DNA of 43,859 nucleotides, taken from positions 1 through 43,859 of IMG/VR virus record IMGVR_UViG_2908567220_000006, one strand, 5' to 3'. The position numbers and the translations under genes are program-made. This stretch comes from a virus (taxonomy: Duplodnaviria; Heunggongvirae; Uroviricota; Caudoviricetes). This document shows, piece by piece, positions 3,939-43,449 of this stretch. Below the pieces are notes generated by a model, which had not been told where the DNA came from, made no database searches, and worked only from the letters and a program-made list of their open reading frames with translations. The stretch's first letter is position 1. Each line of letters begins with the position of its first letter.

Positions 3939-4234
3939 GCCGCGTCCCTCTGTCCATCAAGCTGATCAGCCAGATCCCAGCGGGCGATAATTGCCATTGC
4001 CTCGCGCCGGTAGGAATCCATCAGTTCTTCGAACTCTGGACTGTCTTTAGCGGCCTCCAGTACTTCCTGGCGAACGCCTTTACCTGTTACAGCGTCGAAA
4101 GTTGAGGCTAGTTGATGAAGCCGGATGCTCTCGATCAGTTCAACTTGTCGGTCATATAGCTGTTCTGACAGGCGGTAGTCCTTGTCGAATGCCAGCATGA
4201 TTTTTTGAAGATTTTTCTGCTGATTAACGTTCAT
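3935..4234 (-). CDS. hypothetical early protein
   Basis: Start taken at MNVNQQ, which has a GGGAGGG Shine-Dalgarno 5 nt upstream; overlaps the exonuclease start. Confidence 0.5.
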   Translation of the reverse strand: MNVNQQKNLQKIMLAFDKDYRLSEQLYDRQVELIESIRLHQLASTFDAVTGKGVRQEVLEAAKDSPEFEELMDSYRREAMAIIARWDLADQLDGQRDAA

Positions 4235-4236
4235 TA

Positions 4237-4389
4237 TCAGCCCTCCCATATCTCGTTATCGTTGGCTACATCGCGAGCTTCTTTGCTGACGAAAGCCCAC
4301 TTAATGCCTTCCTGTAAGGTGCGGAACTTCCAGCTCATGAATCCGCATGCAGTAACGCAGCACCAACCGTTGATGATTTTCCACTGCAT
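4237..4389 (-). CDS. small Cys/Trp-rich hypothetical protein (50 aa)
   Basis: Own translation: MQWKIINGWCCVTACGFMSWKF...; first gene downstream of the putative leftward early promoter, the position occupied by kil/cIII-like genes in lambdoid phages. Below the ORF-track size cutoff. Confidence 0.3.
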   Translation of the reverse strand: MQWKIINGWCCVTACGFMSWKFRTLQEGIKWAFVSKEARDVANDNEIWEG

Positions 4390-4408
4390 AATTTGTTACC
4401 TCGGCTTG

Positions 4409-4485
4409 TTACCGTTGAGGTAATGATTATGCGTATTTGGTTTGGTGTCAATAGATATGAGTTAAAAAAATTACCCTTTAGGTAA
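4409..4485. promoter_or_regulatory. oL-like operator pair (TTACC-N5-GGTAA at 4409-4423 and 4471-4485) with leftward early promoter
   Basis: Two perfect copies of the 15-bp palindrome between the repressor gene 3' end and the first early-left gene. Confidence 0.55.
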
Positions 4486-4493
4486 TCAAACAG

Positions 4494-4520
4494 GCAATAA
4501 AAAAGCCGCCAGAAGGCGGC
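4494..4520 (-). terminator. intrinsic terminator downstream of repressor gene
   Basis: GCCGCC-AGAA-GGCGGC hairpin followed on the minus strand by a T-run, about 25 bp after the repressor stop. Confidence 0.5.
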
Positions 4521-4542
4521 TTACTTACTGAAAAATATGATT

Positions 4543-5127
4543 TTATTGTTTGTTTTTTTCGTTCTGGTTGATGACAAATTCAATGTAACTTTCGATCTTT
4601 GCTTTCTCGGTTTCGGGTAACAATGCGTAGCGCGAGCGGTCATAGTTGATGGTCGCAGGGTCGTGCGGGTGAATCAGTAATTCATAGCCGTGACGCCCGA
4701 ATGCGGATGCAACATTCTCCAGGGTGGAAATGGAAACGCTGACCTCATTGTTTAACAGGCGGCTGATTGTCACCTGGGAGACGCCAGATGCGCGGTGAAG
4801 TTTTCCCTGTGTTGAAAGGTCGCGGCTTTCGCTCATCCAGCGTTCCAGGTTGTGAGCCGCCAGTTGACCAATGTCGCTTGGTCCGACAGGCTGAAAACCT
4901 TCCTGAGAAAGCGAGCGATCGATATCAAGCCAGTTACGGGGTTTATTGGCGGCAGCTTCGATTTTTCGCGCAACCTGGTCGCCGATAACCTTCTTGCCAA
5001 GAGCCCAGCGGTTTACCAGATTTGCCTGAGTTCCAAGTTTTTCTGCCATCCGCGTCTGAACACCATTGAATTCACGGTCGATCAAGTCGTTGAGATTTTG
5101 CCTGCGGACGTCCTGGATACTTTTCAT
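4543..5127 (-). CDS. CI-like phage repressor with two tandem XRE-type HTH domains
   Basis: 194 aa; two HTH-like segments (GVQTRMAEKLGTQANLVNRW and LHRASGVSQVTISRLLNNE); divergent from a Cro-like gene; no S24 peptidase motif is apparent. Confidence 0.7.
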   Translation of the reverse strand: MKSIQDVRRQNLNDLIDREFNGVQTRMAEKLGTQANLVNRWALGKKVIGDQVARKIEAAANKPRNWLDIDRSLSQEGFQPVGPSDIGQLAAHNLERWMSESRDLSTQGKLHRASGVSQVTISRLLNNEVSVSISTLENVASAFGRHGYELLIHPHDPATINYDRSRYALLPETEKAKIESYIEFVINQNEKNKQ

Positions 5128-5182
5128 TTTCTGGAAAATCGCCTCATATCTGAATCAGAAGATGATTCAATTTAAAGCAATA

Positions 5183-5245
5183 TTACCCAACAGGTAAATG
5201 CACCTCATGGGTAACTATCCTTGATTTTTGTTACCTTATAGGTGA
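5183..5245. promoter_or_regulatory. oR-like operator cluster with divergent pRM-like and pR-like promoters
   Basis: Three palindrome copies in the 154-bp repressor-cro intergenic region: 5183-5197 perfect, 5200-5214 GCACC..GGTAA, 5231-5245 TTACC..GGTGA. Candidate pR: -35 TTGATT 5221-5226, -10 GAATAT 5244-5249. Confidence 0.6.
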
Positions 5246-5281
5246 ATATTTATTATCTGAAATAAATATCAGGCAATAGCT

Positions 5282-5512
5282 ATGAGCGATAACGGACATT
5301 TCGATTTCAAAAAGCACTGGCTTGCACTTACTCCGGATGAGCGTGAAGCCTTCGCACAGGAAGCCGGAACGACGAGTCACTATATCCAGACTCACTTAAC
5401 AGGTAAGCGCAAAATGCCAGGTAAGGTATTGATGGATGGGCTTTTTAAAGCCTGTAAATCAAGACAATGGCTGCGCTCAAAAGCAGAACTGGCATACTTC
5501 TTCTACTCATGA
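5282..5512 (+). CDS. Cro-like / YdaS-type small HTH regulator
   Basis: 76 aa, divergent from the repressor, transcribed from the operator region. Confidence 0.6.
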   Translation: MSDNGHFDFKKHWLALTPDEREAFAQEAGTTSHYIQTHLTGKRKMPGKVLMDGLFKACKSRQWLRSKAELAYFFYS

Positions 5513-5533
5513 TATCCAGCCACAACCCTCTGT

Positions 5534-5557
5534 AGACCGCCATCCGGCGGTCTTTTC
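5534..5557 (+). terminator. intrinsic terminator after cro (tR1-like)
   Basis: Perfect 8-bp stem AGACCGCC-ATCC-GGCGGTCT followed by TTTTC; a palindrome copy (5568-5582) lies immediately downstream. Confidence 0.6.
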
Positions 5558-5663
5558 ATATCTATTCGTACCTCAAAGGTAATAAAAAACCAAATATGGT
5601 TGATCTTTTTTTTTGTGTCAGCACAAAATAACCGTAATCCCAATACTAATAACAGGGCTTACC

Positions 5664-5864
5664 ATGGAAATCATTACACGTATTGATGCCGCAAAGCGCG
5701 GACTTAAACGCTACTACACCGGAAAACCATGTAAGCACGGACATGACAGTGAACGCTGGGTTTACAACGGACACTGTGTTGAGTGCACCATGGAATCAAA
5801 CCGTCGCATCAGGGCAGAGATTAAGCAGATCATGATTAATTCCTCCCCACAACACTCAAGCTGA
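5664..5864 (+). CDS. small putative zinc-binding protein in cII position
   Basis: Start taken at MEIITRIDAAKRG; Cys/His cluster (CKHGH...CVEC). Confidence 0.4.
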   Translation: MEIITRIDAAKRGLKRYYTGKPCKHGHDSERWVYNGHCVECTMESNRRIRAEIKQIMINSSPQHSS

Positions 5865-7477: not shown

Positions 7478-7514
7478 TACCAGCGCGATAGCGCATTTTT
7501 TTACGCCTCGACAA

Positions 7515-7591
7515 TTACCTGTTAGGTAATAAAATATTCTAAAATCTATTGATTTCGTGTCTTATGTGGTTTTTAATTACCTTAGAGGTAA
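7515..7591. promoter_or_regulatory. two palindrome copies (7515-7529, 7577-7591) upstream of nin-like operon
   Basis: Perfect TTACC-N5-GGTAA copies; the second overlaps the Shine-Dalgarno of the gene starting at 7595. Confidence 0.5.
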
Positions 7592-7594
7592 ATC

Positions 7595-7939
7595 ATGAGA
7601 AAACAGATACAGGCTCTTGGTCGACTCAAAACAGGCCAGATGAACAAAACAGAATCTGCGTATTGCCAGCACCTTGAGCAGCGTAAACGTGCAGGGGAAG
7701 TCGCCTGGTATCGGTTCGAGGGTATCAAGCTGCGGCTGGCTGACAACACGTTTTATACGCCCGATTTCGCTGTGATGCTCGCCACCGGAGAGATGGAACT
7801 GCACGAAGTGAAAGGTTTCTGGACCGACGACGCCAGGGTGAAAATCAAAGTCGCCGCAGATCAGTATCCGTTCCGAATCATCGGGGTAACGGTTAAACCA
7901 AAGAAAGCAGGTGGTGGCTGGAAAATCGAAGAGTTCTGA
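7595..7939 (+). CDS. DUF1064-like phage protein (inferred)
   Basis: 114 aa; family assignment is from memory of the motif pattern, not a search. Confidence 0.45.
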   Translation: MRKQIQALGRLKTGQMNKTESAYCQHLEQRKRAGEVAWYRFEGIKLRLADNTFYTPDFAVMLATGEMELHEVKGFWTDDARVKIKVAADQYPFRIIGVTVKPKKAGGGWKIEEF

Positions 7940-12181: not shown

Positions 12182-12214
12182 TTACCACAACGGTAACTAT
12201 TACCACGGTGGTTA
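12182..12214. promoter_or_regulatory. palindrome pair immediately upstream of small terminase start
   Basis: 12182-12196 perfect TTACCacaacGGTAA; 12200-12214 TTACCacggtGGTTA overlapping the SD. Confidence 0.5.
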
Positions 12215-14927: not shown

Positions 14928-15004
14928 TGGCGTGGCATGCAGGATTCGAACCTGCGACCAACCGCTTAGAAGGCGGTTGCTCTGTCCAGCTGAGCTAATG
15001 CCAC
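14928..15004 (-). tRNA. tRNA-Arg (anticodon UCU)
   Basis: Manual fold of the reverse complement: 7-bp acceptor stem GTGGCAT/ATGCCAC, D-arm GCTCAGCTGGACAGAGC, anticodon stem ACCGC/GCGGT with loop CTTCTAA, T-arm GCAGGTTCGAATCCTGC, discriminator G plus CCA. Acceptor stem differs from my recollection of host argU. Confidence 0.9.
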
Positions 15005-15326: not shown

Positions 15327-15341
15327 TTACCTGAAAGGTAA
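15327..15341. promoter_or_regulatory. palindrome copy upstream of portal/head operon
   Basis: Perfect TTACCtgaaaGGTAA about 90 bp upstream of the first ORF of the head operon. Confidence 0.5.
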
Positions 15342-32867: not shown

Positions 32868-33560
32868 TCAGAAGAACCCTGCCTTGTCGTTGATGTACTC
32901 CGCGTGGGTCTGGATATCACGCAGGCATTTGCTCACACCGACGATGTAGCAGAACATGGTGGTCAGTTCCGCCGCCGCGCCCGATACATCGTGCCCGTCT
33001 TCCTGTAACTGGTTCAGCAGATTCATCAGCAGTGAGTTCTCCGTCAGGCCGAGAACACCAGACGGCGAGTGAATCAGGCTACGGTAGCCGGGCTTCAGCG
33101 GGGCGCTGTAGGTTTTGTTCTCTATCTTCATCGCCTGCATTACTGCTGACGCCGTGGCGTTGGCTACCTGGTCGGCAACCATCTTTATGCGTTCTTCCTG
33201 CGGGAGCGAGTTTTTAATGTAACTTCCGGTGCGGCGGATCTGAGGAAGAACCTCACCTGTAACCCATTCAAGAAATCTGAATGCTCTCGTTCCCTCAGTC
33301 ATTGCCTCTTTGCAACGCAGAATAAGGATGTAGAGACCTGATTCTGAAACGATGGATAGTTCTTGTATTCCACCAGGGGTCTGTATTGAATACAGCCCCT
33401 TTTTGTTCCAGCCTTTTTTATCAAGTTTTCTCGCTTGTGTAACATCAATATTCAAAGCATTGCACACATCTTTGGTGACAAACCAAGGTTCTCCGTCAAT
33501 CATGAACATACGGATCTGGCAGGATGACTCAAAGGAAAAGATGGAAGGTTTGGTATTCAT
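32868..33560 (-). CDS. antirepressor (Bro-N domain with C-terminal Ant/KilA-C-like domain)
   Basis: Start at MNTKPSIFSFESSCQIRMFMIDGEPWFVTKDVC (Bro-N signature) with AAAGGTGA SD. Confidence 0.7.
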   Translation of the reverse strand: MNTKPSIFSFESSCQIRMFMIDGEPWFVTKDVCNALNIDVTQARKLDKKGWNKKGLYSIQTPGGIQELSIVSESGLYILILRCKEAMTEGTRAFRFLEWVTGEVLPQIRRTGSYIKNSLPQEERIKMVADQVANATASAVMQAMKIENKTYSAPLKPGYRSLIHSPSGVLGLTENSLLMNLLNQLQEDGHDVSGAAAELTTMFCYIVGVSKCLRDIQTHAEYINDKAGFF

Positions 33561-33827
33561 GGCGATCACCTTTGTAGTTAGGTTAATCACCACCGCTGAG
33601 ACCAATCAGATGGTGGTGAACTGTGCAGAGTTGGTCTTACCGGCTACAAAGGAACCCGGCGCACCTTTCGGTGCCCCCACACAGCCCACCATAGAATAGG
33701 TGCGCTTTACACATAAAAAAACCGCTTATGCGGCATATGTGCCTCTGTAGTAATCCGGGAGACCAATCCCGGCACTGGATTTTGCCAGTGCCCGATTACT
33801 ATGGCACAAGAGGAGTGCGATGTAAAT

Positions 33828-33842
33828 TTACCGCAAAGGTAA
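33828..33842. promoter_or_regulatory. palindrome copy upstream of Bro-N antirepressor
   Basis: Perfect TTACCgcaaaGGTAA. Confidence 0.45.
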
Positions 33843-33873: not shown

Positions 33874-34131
33874 TTATCTGGTTTGTTTTCGTAATTGTTC
33901 GGCACAATAGTCGAGATGTGTTTGCAGATCCTGCATAGACATCTGTGAGCTGGTGACGTAGTTAATCAGTGCAGTCAGTTCGGCAAGTGGGCCATCGACA
34001 TTAAATCCATCCTTATCGAGATCCCGGAGTAATTTCATCAAGTGCGATCCCTCCACCAGTGACCTGACGCCTCCCGGCGTGTGAATCCTTTCGGTAAATC
34101 CGTCTTCCAGTGGATAGTGATACTGCTGCAT
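33874..34131 (-). CDS. small antirepressor-domain protein, paralog of the Ant C-terminal domain; putative SOS-inducible antirepressor
   Basis: Start at MQQYHYPL with GGAG SD; SHLMKLLRDLDKDGFNVDGPLAELTALINYV...DLQTHLDY aligns by eye with the Bro-N antirepressor C-terminus; a LexA box overlaps its promoter. Confidence 0.55.
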   Translation of the reverse strand: MQQYHYPLEDGFTERIHTPGGVRSLVEGSHLMKLLRDLDKDGFNVDGPLAELTALINYVTSSQMSMQDLQTHLDYCAEQLRKQTR

Positions 34132-34152
34132 CTTATCTTCTCCATGCAATAA

Positions 34153-34168
34153 CTGTATATTTATACAG
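34153..34168. promoter_or_regulatory. LexA (SOS) box
   Basis: CTGTATATTTATACAG: perfect CTGT-N8-ACAG with AT-only spacer, one base from CTGTATATATATACAG; 22 bp upstream of the small antirepressor-domain gene. Confidence 0.7.
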
Positions 34169-34207
34169 TATCAAATAATTTGTTTGCTATCCAGCACGTT
34201 TTGCCAA

Positions 34208-34222
34208 TCACCTGAAAGGTAA
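34208..34222. promoter_or_regulatory. near-perfect palindrome copy (TCACC-N5-GGTAA) in divergent region before tailspike
   Basis: One mismatch; lies between the LexA box and the tailspike promoter region. Confidence 0.4.
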
Positions 34223-34326: not shown

Positions 34327-37002
34327 ATGACGGTCTCAACCGAAGTTGACCACAACGAATACACTGGCAATGGTGTTACGACGACATTCCCTTACAAATT
34401 TAGGATCTTCAAAAAATCAGATCTGGTAGTACAGGTTGTTGACATTAACGAGAATATAAACGTACTGGTTCTTGATACAGATTACATCGTCACCGGAGCA
34501 GGAGGGTACAGCGGCGGTAATGTAATTCTCTCGAAGGCGTTGGCTAACGGTCATCAGATATCTATATCACGAGAACTACCAGCTACTCAGGAAACGGATT
34601 TACGTAATCAGGGTAAGTTCTTCGCTGAGGTACATGAGGATGCGTTCGACAAGTTGACCATGCTTATCCAGCAGTGCTTCAGCTTTCTACGCCTGTCCCT
34701 GCGCAAGCCCTCTTTCATCGCGAACTATTACGATGCGCTCAACAACCGCATTCGTAACCTGCGTGACCCGTCACAGGCGCAGGACGCAGCCACGAAGAAT
34801 TATGTTGATGGGCAGATCGTTGACAATACCAATGCCTGGAAAGCTGGTGATGACATTCTTGATCAGAAAATTGATAGCAATTTCCGAAGAACAATTCGGG
34901 TTCCTGAAAGTGATGTTGATATGGTTCCTACTATAGCTGCAAGAAAAAACTCGCTATTTGGGTGGAACAGCTCCAGTCAACCTGTCCCGATATTTTCTAT
35001 GACGGAAACTGCTGACCTGGCTATTAAGCTAGCAAGCACTGAGATGGGATTGGGTGGCAACCTTGTTGGTATTTACGATGGACGACCGCCAGTTGTTGTT
35101 ACCAATACAGTAACAGATAAAATCAAGGATGGTGCAGCCGGCCTGCGTAAGGATTTCGGAGCTGTAGGTGACGGATACCACGACGATACCGCCGCTTTTA
35201 ATGACTGGTGGGAATGCCTCATGGACCTTCTCTATAAGCGCCGGGGTGTTGAGAGCGACGAAACTGCAGTGCCGTTTATGCTTCAGAAAGGGCCCAGACT
35301 TCATATCGAAAACGGCACATTTATTTATAACGGTCCCGGACTAAATATCACTGATACTGACGCATTTGTTTTTATCGCCGATGGTGAGAGTTCGCTCGCT
35401 ACAAAAATTTTGCTTCCGGATGGTGTTTACTTATTCGATTTTGATAAAAACCCGGTTCATGCGCACCTTGCCAATCTGACCATTCATGGTGGGCTTGGTG
35501 CAGTGCGTTATAAATCTAAACAGCGTTCAACTAACAGCATTCATCTTTTTGAAAATCTACGACTGTCTCGATATAAAGAATGCGGTATTAGTAATAATGC
35601 TATCGATATGCCGTATTTTCGTGTCAGTGGCTCAATGTTTTACGGGGACCCGACAAAACAAACCGTTGGTGTTTGCGTTTCAGGATATGCCGCCGGTGGT
35701 TTTATTCGTGATTCCGTTTTCAGTGATAACCGATACGGCATTAAGTTGGCTGTAGGGAAAAACAGCGTCGAGAGCAACGGCCCTGCAACTCCATACCTTA
35801 TTCAGTGCAATGATTTTTACCGTACTGGTAATCGCGGAGGCTCTGCATCATACGACATCTGGATTGAGCCGGGGGTAACCAGCAATAATGCCGGTCGCGG
35901 TATAAAACTGAGTCAAAACAAGTTCGGACAGGAGAACTTAAAATCTCCGGATACGCATATTTTGATTGCTGATGCCGCTGTATCCGGTAGTGGCTTAGGG
36001 CTAAATGGCGACAGGGCTCACGTTGAAACGCAGTCGGCAGGTTTTGTTTCTGGGGTGAGGTTTGACGGCAATGATGTTAACTCAAACAGCGCCGGGTATA
36101 TTGCGCCGTTTATCCGGACATTTACACCTAACGTGGGGAATTTCAGGTTTTCTGATTTGTACGACAACGATATGCCATCACGCATCATTGAGTTTGCAGG
36201 TGGTATTACTCAGTCACAAATAGGGAACCTGGGGCGTACAAATGTGTTTGACGCGTCTATGTGCCTGGCATTGCAGAAAGGTGTTGAACCTAAGCTGCTA
36301 TCCAACATGAATGACGTCTTCCGCCTGATTGATCCTCTGAATTATTACGTGGGGCACCCGCAGTCAACACTGGTTCCTGTTGGGGGCCAGCAGGATGATT
36401 TTGAATTACTTTACTCCGGTCCTACGTCTACTATCGGACTTAGTAACGCCAGCCGGTCATCGCTCAATAATTCATATGGGGGAATATTTGAAGCAGCTGA
36501 AATCACAATGAATACAGACGAAGGTCGCGCAGTTGCGTCTATAAGTGGTGGGCTGGCGGGGCGTAAACACTGGATTGATTTTGATATTCGTCGAGGCTCT
36601 TCAAATCCCGTAGGCTCTGTTGTGATGGAGGTCATGGACCCTACAGGGGTAACCATTCTGTTTCGTAGAATAATCCTGGTTGATACCATTACTCGATGGC
36701 AAAAAGTCGTTCTCCCGTACATTCCTAATGTAAACGGAGATATTATCGTCCGGTTCCGCTCAAATGTTTATGTGGCTGGATCAGCTACGAATTTTGTTAT
36801 TGGCAACCTCAATGTTTACCGAAACGAAACGCCAGTGAATACGGGGCATAATAGCGGTCTGCGTATGCAGTGGGATCTGCAACACGCAGTGAAAGGCGCA
36901 CGACATGAATGGTATGATAATGCAGGTAATCTGAGAGCTAAAAATGGTGCGCCGACGTCTGCCACCGATGGCGTAATTATCAGTGCAAACCCGGTAGTGT
37001 GA
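34327..37002 (+). CDS. tailspike protein (N-terminal particle-binding domain plus beta-helix-like enzymatic domain)
   Basis: 891 aa; N-terminus MTVSTEVDHNEYTGNGVTTTFPYKFRIF typical of podovirus tailspike/fibre adaptor domains; long Gly/Asn/Ser-rich beta-rich body. Confidence 0.75.
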   Translation: MTVSTEVDHNEYTGNGVTTTFPYKFRIFKKSDLVVQVVDINENINVLVLDTDYIVTGAGGYSGGNVILSKALANGHQISISRELPATQETDLRNQGKFFAEVHEDAFDKLTMLIQQCFSFLRLSLRKPSFIANYYDALNNRIRNLRDPSQAQDAATKNYVDGQIVDNTNAWKAGDDILDQKIDSNFRRTIRVPESDVDMVPTIAARKNSLFGWNSSSQPVPIFSMTETADLAIKLASTEMGLGGNLVGIYDGRPPVVVTNTVTDKIKDGAAGLRKDFGAVGDGYHDDTAAFNDWWECLMDLLYKRRGVESDETAVPFMLQKGPRLHIENGTFIYNGPGLNITDTDAFVFIADGESSLATKILLPDGVYLFDFDKNPVHAHLANLTIHGGLGAVRYKSKQRSTNSIHLFENLRLSRYKECGISNNAIDMPYFRVSGSMFYGDPTKQTVGVCVSGYAAGGFIRDSVFSDNRYGIKLAVGKNSVESNGPATPYLIQCNDFYRTGNRGGSASYDIWIEPGVTSNNAGRGIKLSQNKFGQENLKSPDTHILIADAAVSGSGLGLNGDRAHVETQSAGFVSGVRFDGNDVNSNSAGYIAPFIRTFTPNVGNFRFSDLYDNDMPSRIIEFAGGITQSQIGNLGRTNVFDASMCLALQKGVEPKLLSNMNDVFRLIDPLNYYVGHPQSTLVPVGGQQDDFELLYSGPTSTIGLSNASRSSLNNSYGGIFEAAEITMNTDEGRAVASISGGLAGRKHWIDFDIRRGSSNPVGSVVMEVMDPTGVTILFRRIILVDTITRWQKVVLPYIPNVNGDIIVRFRSNVYVAGSATNFVIGNLNVYRNETPVNTGHNSGLRMQWDLQHAVKGARHEWYDNAGNLRAKNGAPTSATDGVIISANPVV

Positions 37003-39618: not shown

Positions 39619-40809
39619 ATGTTGACTGACACCAGGCTGCGTCACCTTAAGCCGAAGGAGAAACTCTATAAAGTTAATGACCGTGATGGTCTGTATGTTG
39701 CGGTCACTCCGGCTGGAACTATTTCATTTCGTTATAACTATTCAATAAACGGAAGACAGGAGACTGTTACTTTTGGCCGCTATGGTGTTGGAGGGATCAC
39801 GCTTGCAGAAGCGCGTGAACGGCTCAATGAAGCCAAAAAAATGGTTGCCAGTGGAATATCGCCTGCGAGGGAAAAAGCCAGAGATAAAGCGCGTATTAAA
39901 GATGCGGAGACTTTTGGTGCGTGGACTGAGAAATGGTTACGCGGTTATCAAATGGCTGAATCGACGCGTGATATGCGGCGTTCGGTATATCAAAGGGAGT
40001 TGAAGTCAAAATTTGCCCAGCAGAAACTTAGTGAGATTACACATGAAGACTTACGCGCATTAACCGATAACATTGTCGAGAGAGGGGCACCAGCGACAGC
40101 TGTACACGCTAGAGAGATTGTATTGCAAGTCTATCGCTGGGCTATTGAGCGCGGTCAGAAGGTGGAGAATCCTGCTGATCTGGTACGGCCTGCAAGCATA
40201 GCGAAATTTGAGCCTCGAGACAGGGCATTGACGCCAGTTGAAATTGGTCTGATGTATCGGTACATGGAACGGGTAGGAACGACGCCATCAATCAGAGCAG
40301 CGGTTAAACTTTTGCTGTTAACGATGGTACGTAAAAGTGAGCTTACTAACGCAACCTGGAACGAGATCAATTTTAGTGAGGCATTATGGACGATACCAAA
40401 GGAAAGGATGAAACGACGTAATCCACATTTGGTTTTTCTTTCCAGACAGGCAATGGATATTATGATTGCTCTCAAAACCTTTGCCGGTAGCTCTGATTTT
40501 ATCCTTCCTTCGCGGTACGATTCCGATGCGCCAATGAGTAGCGCTACTTTAAACCGGGTTTTGACACTGACGTATCGCCTGGCTCAGAAAGAAGGGGAGT
40601 TGTTGCCTAAGTTTGGTCCCCATGACTTACGGCGTACAGCCAGCACCTTGCTACATGAGGCCGGGTACAATACTGACTGGATTGAGAAGAGCCTTGCCCA
40701 TGAACAAAAAGGGGTACGAGCTGTTTATAACAAGGCAGAATATCGTGAGCAGAGGGCTGAGATGCTACAAGATTGGGCGAATATGATTGATGAATGGACT
40801 AGTAAGTAG
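39619..40809 (+). CDS. int: tyrosine integrase (P4-type)
   Basis: 396 aa; P4-like N-terminal arm-binding region (LYKVNDRDGLYVAVTPAGTISFRYNYSINGRQ) and C-terminal catalytic region (HDLRRTAST...Y). Confidence 0.85.
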   Translation: MLTDTRLRHLKPKEKLYKVNDRDGLYVAVTPAGTISFRYNYSINGRQETVTFGRYGVGGITLAEARERLNEAKKMVASGISPAREKARDKARIKDAETFGAWTEKWLRGYQMAESTRDMRRSVYQRELKSKFAQQKLSEITHEDLRALTDNIVERGAPATAVHAREIVLQVYRWAIERGQKVENPADLVRPASIAKFEPRDRALTPVEIGLMYRYMERVGTTPSIRAAVKLLLLTMVRKSELTNATWNEINFSEALWTIPKERMKRRNPHLVFLSRQAMDIMIALKTFAGSSDFILPSRYDSDAPMSSATLNRVLTLTYRLAQKEGELLPKFGPHDLRRTASTLLHEAGYNTDWIEKSLAHEQKGVRAVYNKAEYREQRAEMLQDWANMIDEWTSK

Positions 40810-40944: not shown

Positions 40945-41850
40945 CTATATTTCCAGACATCTGTTATCACTTAACCCATTACAAGCCCGCTGCCGCAGAT
41001 ATTCCCGTGGCGAGCGATAACCCAGCGCACTATGCGGATGCCATTCGTTATAATGCTCGAACGCCTCTGCAAGGTTCTTTGCTGCCGTTAACCCGTCTGG
41101 TTTGGGCATGATACTGATGTAGTCACGCTTTATCGTTTTCACGAAGCTCTCTGCTATTCCGTTACTCTCCGGACTCCGCACCGCCGTGTTCTTCGGTTCA
41201 AGTCCCAACATCCGGGCGAACTGGCGTGTTTCATTAGCCCGGTAGCATGAACCATTATCCGTCAGCCACTCCACTGGAGACGACGGAAGATCGTTGCCGA
41301 AGCGGCGTTCCACCGCTCCCAGCATGACGTCCTGTACTGTTTCACTGTTGAAGCCGCCGGTAGTGACCGCCCAGTGCAGTGCCTCACGATCACAGCAGTC
41401 CAGCGCGAACGTGACACGCAGTCTCTCTCCGTTATCACAGCAGAACTCGAACCCGTCAGAGCACCATCGCTGATTGCTTTCTTTCACGGCCACTCTGCCT
41501 GTATGTGCCCGTTTCGATGGCGGTACAGCAGGTTTTCGCTCAAGCAACAGCGCATTCTGGCGCATGATCCGGTAAACACGTTTGGCATTGATCGCAGGCA
41601 TACCATCAAGTTCTGCCTGTCTGCGAAGCAGCGCCCATACCCGACGATAACCATACGTGGGCAGCTCTCCGATAACATGGTGTATACGGAGAAGCACATC
41701 CGTATCATCAGTGTGACGACTGCGGCGGCCATCCATCCAGTCATCGGTTCGTCTGAGAATGACGTGCAACTGCGCACGCGACACCCGGAGACAACGGCTG
41801 ACTAAGCTTACTCCCCATCCCCGGGCAATAAGGGCGCGTGCGCTATCCAC
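40945..41850 (-). CDS. insD: IS2 transposase OrfB (InsD)
   Basis: 301 aa, recognised as IS2 OrfB from memory; expressed by frameshift from OrfA. Confidence 0.85.
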
Positions 41851-42218
41851 TTTTTTGCCCGTCCATATTCAACGGCTTCTTTGAGGAGTTCATTTTCCAT
41901 CGTTTTCTTGCCGAGCAGGCGCTGGAGTTCTTTAATCTGCTTCATGGCGGCAGCAAGTTCAGAGGCAGGAACAACCTGTTCTCCGGCGGCGACAGCAGTA
42001 AGACTTCCTTCCTGGTATTGCTTACGCCAGAGAAATAACTGGCTGGCTGCTACACCATGTTGCCGGGCAACGAGGGAGACCGTCATCCCCGGTTCAAAGC
42101 TCTGCTGAACAATTGCGATCTTTTCCTGTGTGGTACGCCGTCTGCGTTTCTCCGGCCCTAAGACATCAATCATCTGTTCTCCAATGACTAGTCTAAAAAC
42201 TAGTATTAAGACTATCAC
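41808..42218 (-). CDS. insC: IS2 transposase OrfA (InsC)
   Basis: HTH-containing OrfA; overlaps OrfB in a different frame. Confidence 0.85.
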
Positions 42219-42295
42219 TTAAATAAGTGATATTGGTTGTCTGGAGATTCAGGGGGCCAGTCTAAAAAGTGCCTGAGTTGTCTGTAATTATACAA

Positions 42296-42898
42296 TGGAT
42301 GAATCAATACCCTAAGACCGGCTGGCTATTGCTGTGTATCTATATTGCACTCGGTGTAGTTCGTCACAGAGTAATTAATGCTGAATCTGGAAGTGTATTT
42401 CGTGGACTACTCAATCTTAGGAAGCGCCGGCTAGAGCAAATGCTGACACAGCCATATTCGAATAAAAATGCGGTCCGTCTGGCAAAGCGTGAGCTTCGTC
42501 AGCGCAGCCTTTATCGGCTCACAGGCTTGTATAATTATCGGCTGCAGGATTTGGCTGTAATAATGTGTGATCGTTATGGGTTGCGGGCTGGTTATCTCAA
42601 GCCGTGGCGTAACTGGCTCGAAGAACGGGATGGACGGATTGTGTTCAACAGGAAATGGCATTGTTTTCGCTGGCGTCTTTTTCTGGTAGGTCAGATTGTA
42701 AACACAGTTCTACTAATATTATTCATTATGTATATAGTTTCTCATTCTTCGGCCGAAATGATCGCACCGCTTATGTTACTCTTCATGCTTGTATGGTGGT
42801 TTCCTTGGCTAATGATCACCTCGGTACCTACCCCTAGGTGGACTCGCGAAATGGAAGTCTATCTTGAGAAATTTAACGCTGAACAGACCATGGTTTAA
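42296..42898 (+). CDS. hypothetical membrane protein (N-terminal TM, basic soluble domain, two C-terminal TM helices)
   Basis: Start at ATG 42296 (MDESIP) rather than the ORF-track start at 42269, which lies in the IS2 target duplication; IS2 sits 27 bp upstream. Confidence 0.5.
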   Translation, partial: WMNQYPKTGWLLLCIYIALGVVRHRVINAESGSVFRGLLNLRKRRLEQMLTQPYSNKNAVRLAKRELRQRSLYRLTGLYNYRLQDLAVIMCDRYGLRAGYLKPWRNWLEERDGRIVFNRKWHCFRWRLFLVGQIVNTVLLILFIMYIVSHSSAEMIAPLMLLFMLVWWFPWLMITSVPTPRWTREMEVYLEKFNAEQTMV

Positions 42899-42945
42899 AC
42901 TGTTCTTTGTTACCATGCATTCAGAGTGAAGGTAATGACTCCAAC

Positions 42946-43449
42946 TTATTGATAGTGTTTTATGTTCAGATAATGCCCGATGACTTTGTCATGCAGCTCC
43001 ACCGATTTTGAAAACGACAGCGACTTCCGTCCCAGCCGTGCCAGGTGCTGCCTCAGATTCAGGTTATGCCGCTCAATTCGCTGCGTATATCGCTTGCTGA
43101 TTACGTGCAGCTTTCCCTTCAGGCGGGATTCATACAGCGGCCAGCCATCCGTCATCCATATCACCACGTCAAAGGGTGACAGCAGGCTCATAAGACGCCC
43201 CAGCGTCGCCATAGTGCGTTCACCGAATACGTGCGCAACAACCGTCTTCCGGAGACTGTCATACGCGTAAAACAGCCAGCGCTGGCGCGATTTAGCCCCG
43301 ACATAGCCCCACTGTTCGTCCATTTCCGCGCAGACGATGACGTCACTGCCCGGCTGTATGCGCGAGGTTACCGACTGCGGCCTGAGTTTTTTAAGTGACG
43401 TAAAATCGTGTTGAGGCCAACGCCCATAATGCGGGCTGTTGCCCGGCAT
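42946..43449 (-). CDS. insB: IS1 transposase InsB
   Basis: 167 aa, recognised as IS1 InsB. Confidence 0.85.

Follow-up and report, generated by a model that had tools for sequence, protein, structure and literature searches.

The Rep-Ant switch of phage SPC32H is reportedly described in Kim & Ryu, J Virol 2013 and in Kim et al., PNAS 2016. In this type of switch the repressor Rep is inactivated without cleavage of its own, by an antirepressor that is made after cleavage of LexA (PMC7380047; PMC9638917), the antirepressor Ant being under LexA control (PMC7380047). Rep binds palindromic sites as a tetramer, of which one is enough for repression, and is broken up by tetrameric Ant (PMC9638917); its domain scheme, DBD-MDD-CAD, consists of a DNA-binding domain, a middle dimerisation domain and a C-terminal domain for tetramerisation and Ant binding (PMC9986798). 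In phage ZX5, whose repressor is stated to be identical to that of phiV10, overexpression of the repressor blocked the lytic cycle (PMC9782041).

Judging from its sequence, the window, by which we mean the whole stretch of 43,859 nucleotides analysed here, very probably carries a Rep-Ant switch like that of SPC32H, governing lysis and lysogeny in an E. coli phage of the genus Uetakevirus (phiV10/epsilon15/SPC32H group). What was computed for the window itself comprises the genes and their domains, the LexA box, the homology of Rep and Ant to the two chains of the solved complex and, for the palindromes, how enriched they are, where they lie and which of them are syntenic with sites in related phages; the coordinates are collected in Table 1. 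A preliminary description had read the region as an immunity switch; this reading is correct but already known, the mechanism having been worked out in the related Salmonella phage SPC32H.

Table 1. Features of the switch and of related sites in the window
Feature	Position	Strand	Remarks
Predicted operator OL1	4409..4423		TTACCGTTGAGGTAA; exact; touches the -10/start region of leftward pL
pL-like promoter	4423..4451	-	TTGACA-17-AATCAT, 10/12 matches; consensus scan only; drives leftward early genes (4389 downwards)
Predicted operator OL2	4471..4485		TTACCCTTTAGGTAA; exact; upstream of the pL -35; exactly 62 bp from OL1
Intrinsic terminator behind rep	4503..4522	-	8-bp stem with 6 GC pairs, U-run; dG -20.7, z=-5.9
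rep	4543..5127	-	194-aa prophage repressor; ORF, Pfam, PDB 5D50_A, AF2/Foldseek
Predicted operator OR1	5183..5197		TTACCCAACAGGTAA; exact; rep-proximal (pRM) side
Predicted operator OR2	5200..5214		GCACCTCATGGGTAA; degenerate, 2 mismatches; 17 bp from OR1
pR-like promoter	5228..5256	+	TTGTTA-17-TATTAT, 9/12 matches; consensus scan only; overlaps 5231-5245
Predicted operator OR3	5231..5245		TTACCTTATAGGTGA; one mismatch; within the pR -35 and spacer
cro-like gene	5282..5512	+	76 aa; phrog_35 'transcriptional repressor', 8.7e-13
Intrinsic terminator behind cro-like gene	5534..5553	+	shorter U-run; z=-3.4; annotated in phiV10
Extra operator-like site	5568..5582		GTACCTCAAAGGTAA; one mismatch; just beyond the cro terminator
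Palindrome pair	7515..7591		exact, 7515-7529 and 7577-7591, 62 bp apart; after replication genes
Palindrome pair	12182..12214		18 bp apart; between a terminator and the small-terminase start
Exact palindrome	15327..15341		upstream of gp3-like and portal genes
Bro-N protein	32868..33605	-	C-terminal ~80 aa homologous to Ant; Pfam Bro-N 2e-13; phrog_130 'anti-repressor Ant'
C4 antisense RNA (P1/P7 immI type)	33609..33696	-	Rfam RF01695, 78.6 bits (gathering score 45)
isrK-family sRNA	33715..33791	-	Rfam RF01394, 74.7 bits (gathering score 50); ends in an intrinsic terminator
Rep-type palindrome	33828..33842		exact; abuts the -35 of a promoter-like site before isrK/C4
ant	33874..34131	-	85-aa antirepressor; PDB 5D50_E 'Anti-repressor protein', 4e-47
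LexA box	34151..34170		AACTGTATATTTATACAGTA; directly upstream of ant; CTGT-N8-ACAG core 34153-34168
Rep-type palindrome	34208..34222		TCACCTGAAAGGTAA; ant-tailspike intergenic region

The repressor is 99.5% identical to phiV10 p40 and ZX5 ORF21, and over residues 1-190 it matches residues 2-197 of the SPC32H 'Repressor' in the Protein Data Bank (5D50_A, E=4.3e-42), with a further match to the C-terminal domain structure 5D4Z (E=4e-20). Identity to SPC32H Rep is 41.8% by tblastn; domain by domain it is 53% in the N-terminal domain, 32% in the middle and 45% in the tail. An N-terminal HTH DNA-binding domain (residues ~1-70) is joined by a linker to an HTH-like middle domain (~85-152), behind which comes the C-terminal tail (~153-194), and the AF2 model (mean pLDDT 79) shows helices at 4-59, 85-151 and 164-193 with disorder at 74-82. 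A Foldseek search with this model places 5D50 and 5D4Z on top, with TM of 0.70-0.76 to the C-terminal domain chains. The protein has the SPC32H-type architecture of HTH DNA-binding, middle dimerisation and C-terminal tetramerisation/Ant-binding domains, on the published scheme (PMC9986798).

No S24 peptidase was found in Rep by Pfam, even at E<=1, or in NCBIfam and the PHROG-annotated families, which bears out the earlier claim of a repressor that lacks an autocleavage domain. The whole length of the protein is assigned to the three Rep domains. It thus lacks the C-terminal S24 domain (Ser-Lys dyad, Ala-Gly cleavage site) of autocleavable repressors such as lambda CI or LexA, its C-terminal half matching the Rep C-terminal domain instead.

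The same description had spoken of a tandem HTH, and in sequence there are indeed two HTH-like domains: HTH_3 (1.4e-10) matches in two stretches, best at residues 106-147, where HTH_26, LacI and HTH_31 also match, while residues 20-61 give weaker YdaS/DUF739 HTH matches. The second of them, however, is a dimerisation domain in the solved homologue (PMC9986798), so that this part of the claim holds for the sequence and not for a second DNA-reading head. It could still be argued that both domains read DNA and that the operator is bipartite, since it is the second domain that gives the stronger HTH_3 match, its Q118 and R123 are invariant in 40 database homologues, and the structural mechanism of Rep repression 'has not been extensively characterized' (PMC9986798). 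Q118 and R123 are, moreover, typical HTH_3 residues. Against this, the operator is a plain palindrome of two-fold symmetry whose half-sites are spaced by one helical turn, a geometry that calls for a pair of identical heads; when 26 sites from two genomes are combined into a symmetrised profile, conservation does not reach further than +/-2 bp from the palindrome, with no conserved second motif found beside the palindromes for a second HTH; and the domain serves dimerisation in the solved homologue (PMC9638917; PMC9986798). We consider a bipartite operator very unlikely. The preferred reading, with the N-terminal domains as the DNA-reading heads, accords with N36, R40 and W41 of the recognition helix, which are invariant in 41 homologues.

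Around rep, TTACC-N5-GGTAA palindromes occur twice on the pL side and three times on the pR/pRM side, which is the count that had been given beforehand. OL1 recurs unchanged in Tyrion and can be aligned with sites in epsilon15 and SPC32H, and its spacing to OL2 is found again in all three phages. OR2 is degenerate in the window; its aligned counterparts in epsilon15 and SPC32H are perfect, while Tyrion shares the degenerate one. The extra site beyond the cro terminator has an equally placed counterpart in Tyrion with the identical mismatch in its first base. When the pL and pR regions of the four phages are aligned, variation is seen in the central N5 and in the flanks, and the half-sites do not change. 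A covariation test of repressor against operator was ruled out by these shared half-sites, and recognition-helix conservation was used instead. The promoters that these sites adjoin come from consensus scans whose results lie barely above the expectation from shuffled sequence. Both of the terminators expected behind the repressor and cro were found, that of rep being annotated at the same place in phiV10, and that of the cro-like gene may be leaky given its short U-tract.

The cro-like protein is 79% identical to SPC32H_042, and its position (divergent from the repressor) and its size would fit a Cro-type protein. It has no sequence match in Pfam, NCBIfam or the PDB, and its single-sequence AF2 model is a helical bundle whose best Foldseek matches (YdaS, lambda-repressor-like and C-protein HTH) are non-significant (E at least 1.1, TM~0.6). 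This protein could share the palindromes with Rep, or could be their main user.

The predicted operators are dispersed across the genome and are not special to the immunity region. The window contains 10 exact palindromes against 0.02 expected and, with at most one mismatch allowed, 15 against 0.87, a number that none of 100 shuffles reached; a comparable excess, with sites at syntenic positions, is seen in epsilon15, Tyrion and SPC32H. At the pair after the replication genes, the first site occupies the spacer of a promoter-like site (7508-7535) and the second covers the ribosome-binding site of the ORF starting at 7595, and the pair is syntenic with the same spacing in epsilon15 (one member annotated), SPC32H and Tyrion. 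The pair before the small terminase has a syntenic counterpart in epsilon15 (annotated) and in Tyrion. The site upstream of the gp3-like and portal genes corresponds to an epsilon15 site annotated as repressor-binding, and that between ant and the tailspike gene to one annotated 'protein_bind repressor', the latter being found in SPC32H and Tyrion as well.

Such a distribution invites the reading that the dispersed palindromes serve some other factor, be it a late regulator or the Cro-like protein by itself, or form a structural or packaging motif, and are not Rep operators. Many copies do lie far from rep, two of them within the tailspike ORF (35099 and 35817), and we know of no dispersed palindrome that has been footprinted. 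We give this reading hardly any credence, for the motif is present to either side of rep, overlapping pL and pR, the epsilon15 GenBank record annotates it as repressor-binding, and recognition helix and half-sites are jointly conserved in four phages whose Reps otherwise share 42-78% identity. Indeed, all four genomes share the TTACC and GGTAA half-sites though the epsilon15 and SPC32H repressors are only 42% identical to that of the window. Sites of Rep remain the favoured interpretation of the palindromes.

The claim that induction would depend on an antirepressor is supported at the level of sequence by ant, whose product is 88% identical to SPC32H Ant and which is divergent from the tailspike gene, the position it also has in SPC32H and epsilon15. 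The core of its LexA box, CTGTATATTTATACAG at 34153-34168, is situated 17 nt upstream of the ant ribosome-binding site, and the box as a whole agrees in 18 of 20 positions with the established E. coli consensus TACTGTATATATATACAGTA. Equivalent boxes occur in SPC32H (19958) and epsilon15, their position being conserved, and in the window the box appears to overlap the putative ant promoter. Three other CTGT-N8-ACAG matches (14797, 19339 and 35750) were set aside, having GC-rich spacers and no suitable downstream gene.

Downstream of ant, the window has a second antirepressor module resembling P1 immI, made up of isrK and C4 RNAs and a fusion of Bro-N to an Ant-like domain. The C4 RNA is upstream of the fusion ORF and co-oriented with it, as in P1 immI. 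The likely true start of the fusion is the ATG at 33560, and over 74-75 residues its C-terminus shares 42% identity with the Ant of the window and 40% with that of SPC32H. The palindrome at 33828-33842 precedes the module, and the predicted start of the promoter-like site next to it coincides with the 5' end of isrK.

This module may be taken as a second, accessory antirepressor. A different weighting would make the fusion, under isrK/C4 control, the main route of induction as in P1 immI or with Gifsy-1 AnrP, the small Ant being secondary or redundant. Apart from the Ant-like domain of the fusion and the two Rfam RNAs directly upstream, a result from ZX5 speaks for this, where the Bro-N 'anti-repressor', when overexpressed, reduced both lysogeny and transcription of the repressor, and where antirepression was ascribed to the Bro-N protein and not to the small Ant (PMC9782041); the ZX5 protein, however, is only 39% identical to that of phiV10 (PMC9782041). 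SPC32H and epsilon15 do without a Bro-N module and have only the small ant at the locus, and a LexA box precedes the small ant alone in the window, the three other core matches lying elsewhere. According to Kim & Ryu 2013, as reported, SPC32H switches through the small ant. We regard the fusion as unlikely to be the main route and keep to the small Ant in that role.

A joint reading of these features is possible, although we hold it to be rather doubtful. The LexA-gated small Ant and the fusion behind isrK/C4, with a Rep-type palindrome at its promoter, would be two coupled antirepressors making induction irreversible, and the dispersed sites would let one tetramer directly clamp late and middle operons. 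If so, loss of Rep, or a second, SOS-independent signal acting via the RNAs, would feed back on Rep, and Rep sites in fixed pairs of 62 bp or 18 bp (terS, portal, tailspike, post-replication) would clamp operons beyond pL and pR as P1 C1 does.

By homology with SPC32H, the switch would probably work as follows. The paired N-terminal domains of Rep tetramers would read a 17-bp palindrome, A-TTACC-N5-GGTAA-T, and lytic transcription would be silenced by occupation of the sites that overlap pL, pR and several other promoter or start regions; where two sites share one face of the DNA at a distance of exactly 62 bp, they would be well placed for a single tetramer to hold both operators. DNA damage would lead to self-cleavage of LexA, the LexA box would be freed and the 85-aa Ant made, which would then bind the Rep C-terminal domains so that the tetramer leaves the DNA, presumably with no cleavage of Rep involved. 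pR and pL would then fire, and the Cro-like protein would presumably take over the same operators. Tetramer binding, disassembly by Ant and the lack of Rep cleavage are carried over to the window phage from its homologue SPC32H, and the oligomeric state and Ant contacts proposed for its Rep are extrapolated across 42% identity to the crystallised Rep (32% in the middle domain).

Of 5426 complete E. coli genomes, 541 contain the immunity region at 95-99% identity, and in these RefSeq names Rep only as 'helix-turn-helix domain-containing protein' and the features of the ant region only as 'hypothetical protein'. The switch of the window opens no new question, and its value is mainly one of annotation, linking common prophages (including O157-typing and O-antigen-modifying phages) to the solved SPC32H Rep-Ant complex. 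Given this link, these prophages should be SOS-inducible via LexA and Ant and not by repressor cleavage, and an Ant that is 88% identical across genera suggests that cross-induction of related prophages is possible.

Amongst other known systems, the C1/immI system of P1 (C4 RNA-icd-ant) resembles the window in its non-cleavable repressor, its scattered operators and a C4 RNA before the ant gene, whereas P1 has asymmetric operators and a C1 with no sequence relationship to the Rep of the window. The Gifsy prophages, coliphage 186 (Tum) and N15 (AntC) follow the same logic, a non-cleavable repressor being inactivated by a small LexA-repressed protein (PMC7380047; see also PMC3121763). Searches of Pfam, PHROG, NCBIfam and the PDB gave no match that would tie Ant to the Gifsy, Tum or AntC antirepressors. 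In the 2013 abstract SPC32H Ant is reportedly described as structurally distinct from the antirepressors of Gifsy, 186 and N15.

In epsilon15, gp38 is the repressor (AY150271.2; 42% identical to that of the window) and the motif is the same, ATTACC-N5-GGTAAT. The record marks sites at pL, upstream of terS and of gp3, in the gap from gp19 to the tailspike gene, and behind the replication gene, all of them positions that recur in the window, and it leaves the three pR-side sites unannotated. The DNA of phiV10 is 97.9% identical to the window over 4200-5700, and both terminators and 'two helix-turn-helix motifs' are mentioned in its record; the small Ant (a 'hypothetical protein' in phiV10, p24), the LexA box and the operators are not named in the phiV10 and ZX5 records or in the ZX5 paper. 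From SPC32H the window differs in having two and not three pL-side sites, a degenerate OR2, and the isrK/C4/Bro-N fusion module. SPC32H belongs to the same genus and shares with the window a rep divergent from a cro-like gene, an ant divergent from the tailspike gene with a LexA box before it, and the same palindromes at the same places and spacings.

By every testable feature, the immunity switch of this phage is a member of the Rep-Ant family of Salmonella phage SPC32H, another Uetakevirus. A PDB sequence search with the repressor Rep matched 5D50 chain A ('Repressor') over its whole length (E=4e-42) and 5D4Z over the C-terminal 107 aa (4e-20); these entries are the SPC32H Rep-Ant complex and the Rep C-terminal domain, respectively. 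Overall identity to the crystallised protein is 42 %, and only 32 % in the middle domain. An AlphaFold model from 40 homologues (mean pLDDT 79) placed helical domains at aa 4-59 (N-terminal) and 85-151, with a disordered linker (74-82) between them; after the second domain come a short helix and a long one at the terminus (164-193). Its best PDB matches were 5D50 and 5D4Z, with TM 0.70-0.76 to C-terminal domain chains.

The preliminary description had proposed two tandem helix-turn-helix (HTH) domains and no autocleavage domain. The latter holds, as a Pfam scan of Rep gave no Peptidase_S24 even at E<=1. The former stands at the sequence level: HTH_3 was found in two stretches (1.4e-10), the better one at aa 106-147 being matched by HTH_26, LacI and HTH_31 as well, aa 20-61 gave sub-threshold YdaS and DUF739 HTH matches, and PHROGs placed aa 1-76 and aa 92-191 in distinct regulator families. 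The phiV10 record already states 'two helix-turn-helix motifs' for its repressor, but the solved homologue uses its second HTH-like domain for dimerisation. In SPC32H Rep, the N-terminal domain binds DNA, the middle one dimerises, and the C-terminal one serves both tetramerisation and antirepressor binding (PMC9986798). The protein occupies palindromic DNA in tetrameric form; the two heads that contact each palindrome are proposed to stem from different dimers, and a single tetramer suffices for repression (PMC9638917).

A second DNA element, as a possible target of the second HTH-like domain, was sought by combining 26 sites of the window and of SPC32H, with 20 bp of flank, into a symmetrised profile. 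Information was confined to (W)A-TTACC-N2-W-N2-GGTAA-T(W), with no second conserved element in the profile and general A+T richness alone outside. For a palindrome of this two-fold kind, whose half-sites are one turn apart, two identical heads are enough. In the N-terminal recognition helix (aa 35-43), N36, R40 and W41 are invariant across 41 homologues including SPC32H Rep, which fits the identical half-sites in four phages (this one, SPC32H, epsilon15 and Tyrion) whose Reps are only 42-78 % identical.

The window holds 10 exact TTACC-N5-GGTAA palindromes against 0.02 expected, and 15 with at most one mismatch against 0.87 expected, and chance is excluded as the source of this abundance. The two pL-side and three pR-side operators proposed earlier were recovered, as were terminator hairpins behind both rep and the cro-like gene, each of them already marked by phiV10's annotators. 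When the rep/cro intergenic regions of the four phages were aligned, the three sites coincided, with invariant half-site columns and variable central five bases; the degenerate 5200 site pairs with perfect sites of epsilon15 and SPC32H. Of the three pL-side sites in epsilon15 and SPC32H, two align with those of the window.

Coordinates of the switch components and associated features in the window
Feature	Position	Strand	Remarks
rep	4543-5127	-	ORF, 194 aa
cro-like gene	5282-5512		ORF, 76 aa; divergent from rep
Exact palindromes	4409, 4471 (pL side); 5183 (pR side)		motif scan
One-mismatch palindromes	5231 (pR side); 5568		motif scan
Two-mismatch palindrome	5200 (pR side)		motif scan
pL-like promoter	4451->4423		TTGACA-17-AATCAT; between the two left sites, touching 4409; consensus match only
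pR-like promoter	5228-5256		encloses 5231; consensus match only
Promoter-like site, leftward	5621->5593		adjoins 5568-5582
Palindromes	7515, 7577		after replication genes; 7515 in spacer of promoter-like site, 7577 over next gene's ribosome-binding site
Palindromes	12182, 12200		between terminator and small-terminase (terS) start
tRNA-Arg (anticodon TCT)	14928-15004	-	ARAGORN and Rfam
Palindrome	15327		ahead of gp3-like and portal genes
Palindromes	32780, 33828, 34208		around antirepressor genes
Bro-N protein ORF	32868-33605	-	likely start 33560
C4 antisense RNA	33609-33696	-	Rfam 78.6 bits, above gathering score
isrK-family sRNA	33715-33791	-	Rfam 74.7 bits, above gathering score
ant	33874-34131	-	small ORF, directly upstream of and divergent from tailspike gene
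LexA box AACTGTATATTTATACAGTA	34151-34170		ends 17 nt ahead of ant GGAG ribosome-binding site
Palindromes	35099-35113, 35817-35831		within tailspike ORF (34327-37002); one of two exact
Integrase gene	39619-40809
IS3-family orfB; orfA	40945-41850; 41808-42218		transposase genes
IS1 transposase	42946-43449

The immunity region is not the only place for these operators; they occur genome-wide, and the dispersed sites may be occupied by Rep, by the Cro-like protein or by both. Epsilon15, Tyrion and SPC32H carry 15-18 sites each in corresponding places, and the epsilon15 GenBank record tags seven as 'protein_bind: repressor'. Spacing is exactly 62 bp in the pL and post-replication pairs (8/8 pairs, four Uetakevirus genomes), 18 bp in the terS pair, and 17 and 30-31 bp within the pR triplet. 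These fixed spacings suggest a fixed geometry for a tetrameric repressor; 62 bp is about six helical turns, so that two palindromes on one face of the DNA would be within reach of a single tetramer. Just past the cro terminator, the operator-like GTACCTCAAAGGTAA (5568-5582) has a Tyrion counterpart at the same place with the same first-base mismatch, and may be a distal looping partner or control the downstream replication operon.

The cro-like protein shares 79 % identity with SPC32H_042 and was assigned to phrog_35 ('transcriptional repressor'), with no sequence match in Pfam, NCBIfam or PDB. Modelled from its single sequence, it forms a bundle of five helices; the closest folds in the PDB (YdaS, lambda-repressor-like and controller-protein HTH) are not significant matches. 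By position, the 'Cro' label is reasonable, not proven.

Ant, the small antirepressor, shares 88 % identity with SPC32H Ant, and a PDB search matched it to 5D50 chain E ('Anti-repressor protein', 4e-47); its phiV10 counterpart, p24, is annotated only as hypothetical. Ahead of it lies a CTGT-N8-ACAG LexA box agreeing with the established E. coli consensus at 18 of 20 positions, with an equivalent at the same place in SPC32H and epsilon15. Since the window encodes both Ant and the LexA box, the earlier proposal of induction through an antirepressor and not autocleavage is borne out at the level of sequence. A review groups SPC32H with phages in which LexA self-cleavage leads to production of an antirepressor, the repressor then being inactivated through protein-protein contact (PMC7380047), and antirepressor-based induction here would match this mechanism published for a congener.

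A second antirepressor module adjoins ant. The isrK and C4 RNAs lie between ant and the next ORF, directly upstream of the Bro-N gene, and over its last ~80 residues the Bro-N protein shares 42 % identity with the window's Ant and 40 % with SPC32H Ant. The layout resembles P1 immI, where C4 RNA is followed by ant, and the isrK-anrP locus of Gifsy-1. The exact palindrome at 33828-33842 lies directly against the -35 of a promoter-like site, TTTACA-17-CATAGT, and the start predicted for this site falls on the 5' end of the isrK match; Rep may therefore control the isrK/C4/Bro-N operon, in either direction. SPC32H and epsilon15 lack this module. In phiV10 and Tyrion, a Bro-N gene annotated 'anti-immunity' or 'anti-repressor' occupies its place. 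Overexpression of the ZX5 Bro-N protein gave fewer lysogens and less repressor mRNA, in a study that left the small Ant out of account (PMC9782041).

In nucleotide comparison, identity over positions 4200-5700 is 97.9 % with Escherichia phage phiV10 and its close relatives (O157 typing phages 9 and 10, phiv142-3, ZX5, TL-2011b) and 76-78 % with Enterobacter phages Tyrion and BUCT554, all of the genus Uetakevirus (epsilon15 group). Gene order around rep is that of phiV10: leftward, recombination genes, then 50-aa and 104-aa ORFs, then the repressor; beyond it, the divergent small gene, a 66-aa ORF, DnaT-like and lambda-P-like replication genes and a DUF1064 gene. Lysis genes adjoin int, and the window therefore shows the circularly permuted gene order of an unintegrated phage. 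The IS3 and IS1 genes (40945-43449) lie between the integrase and left-arm early genes. The tRNA-Arg gene of the window (14928-15004) has a tRNA-Arg counterpart in SPC32H at the matching place. Among 5426 complete E. coli genomes, 541 carry the immunity region (4400-5600) at 95-99 % identity; there, RefSeq labels Rep only 'helix-turn-helix domain-containing protein' and the ant region only 'hypothetical protein', and practical relevance lies in this uninformative annotation.

The switch is of the SPC32H type, the repressor is essentially that of phiV10/ZX5, and the operator motif is identical with the annotated epsilon15 motif; the finding is thus correct but already known. Modest additions to the available records are the link of phiV10-lineage genes to the solved Rep-Ant complex, the LexA box and small ant of this lineage, operator spacings that are strictly conserved, and the occurrence of an RNA-gated Bro-N::Ant fusion alongside a LexA-gated Ant. 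Relative to SPC32H, the repressor is the component of the switch that is conserved least. Given the identities of Ant (88 %) and the Cro-like protein (79 %) and the identical operator half-sites, this phage and SPC32H may be homoimmune as far as DNA recognition goes, and the Ant of each may induce the other.
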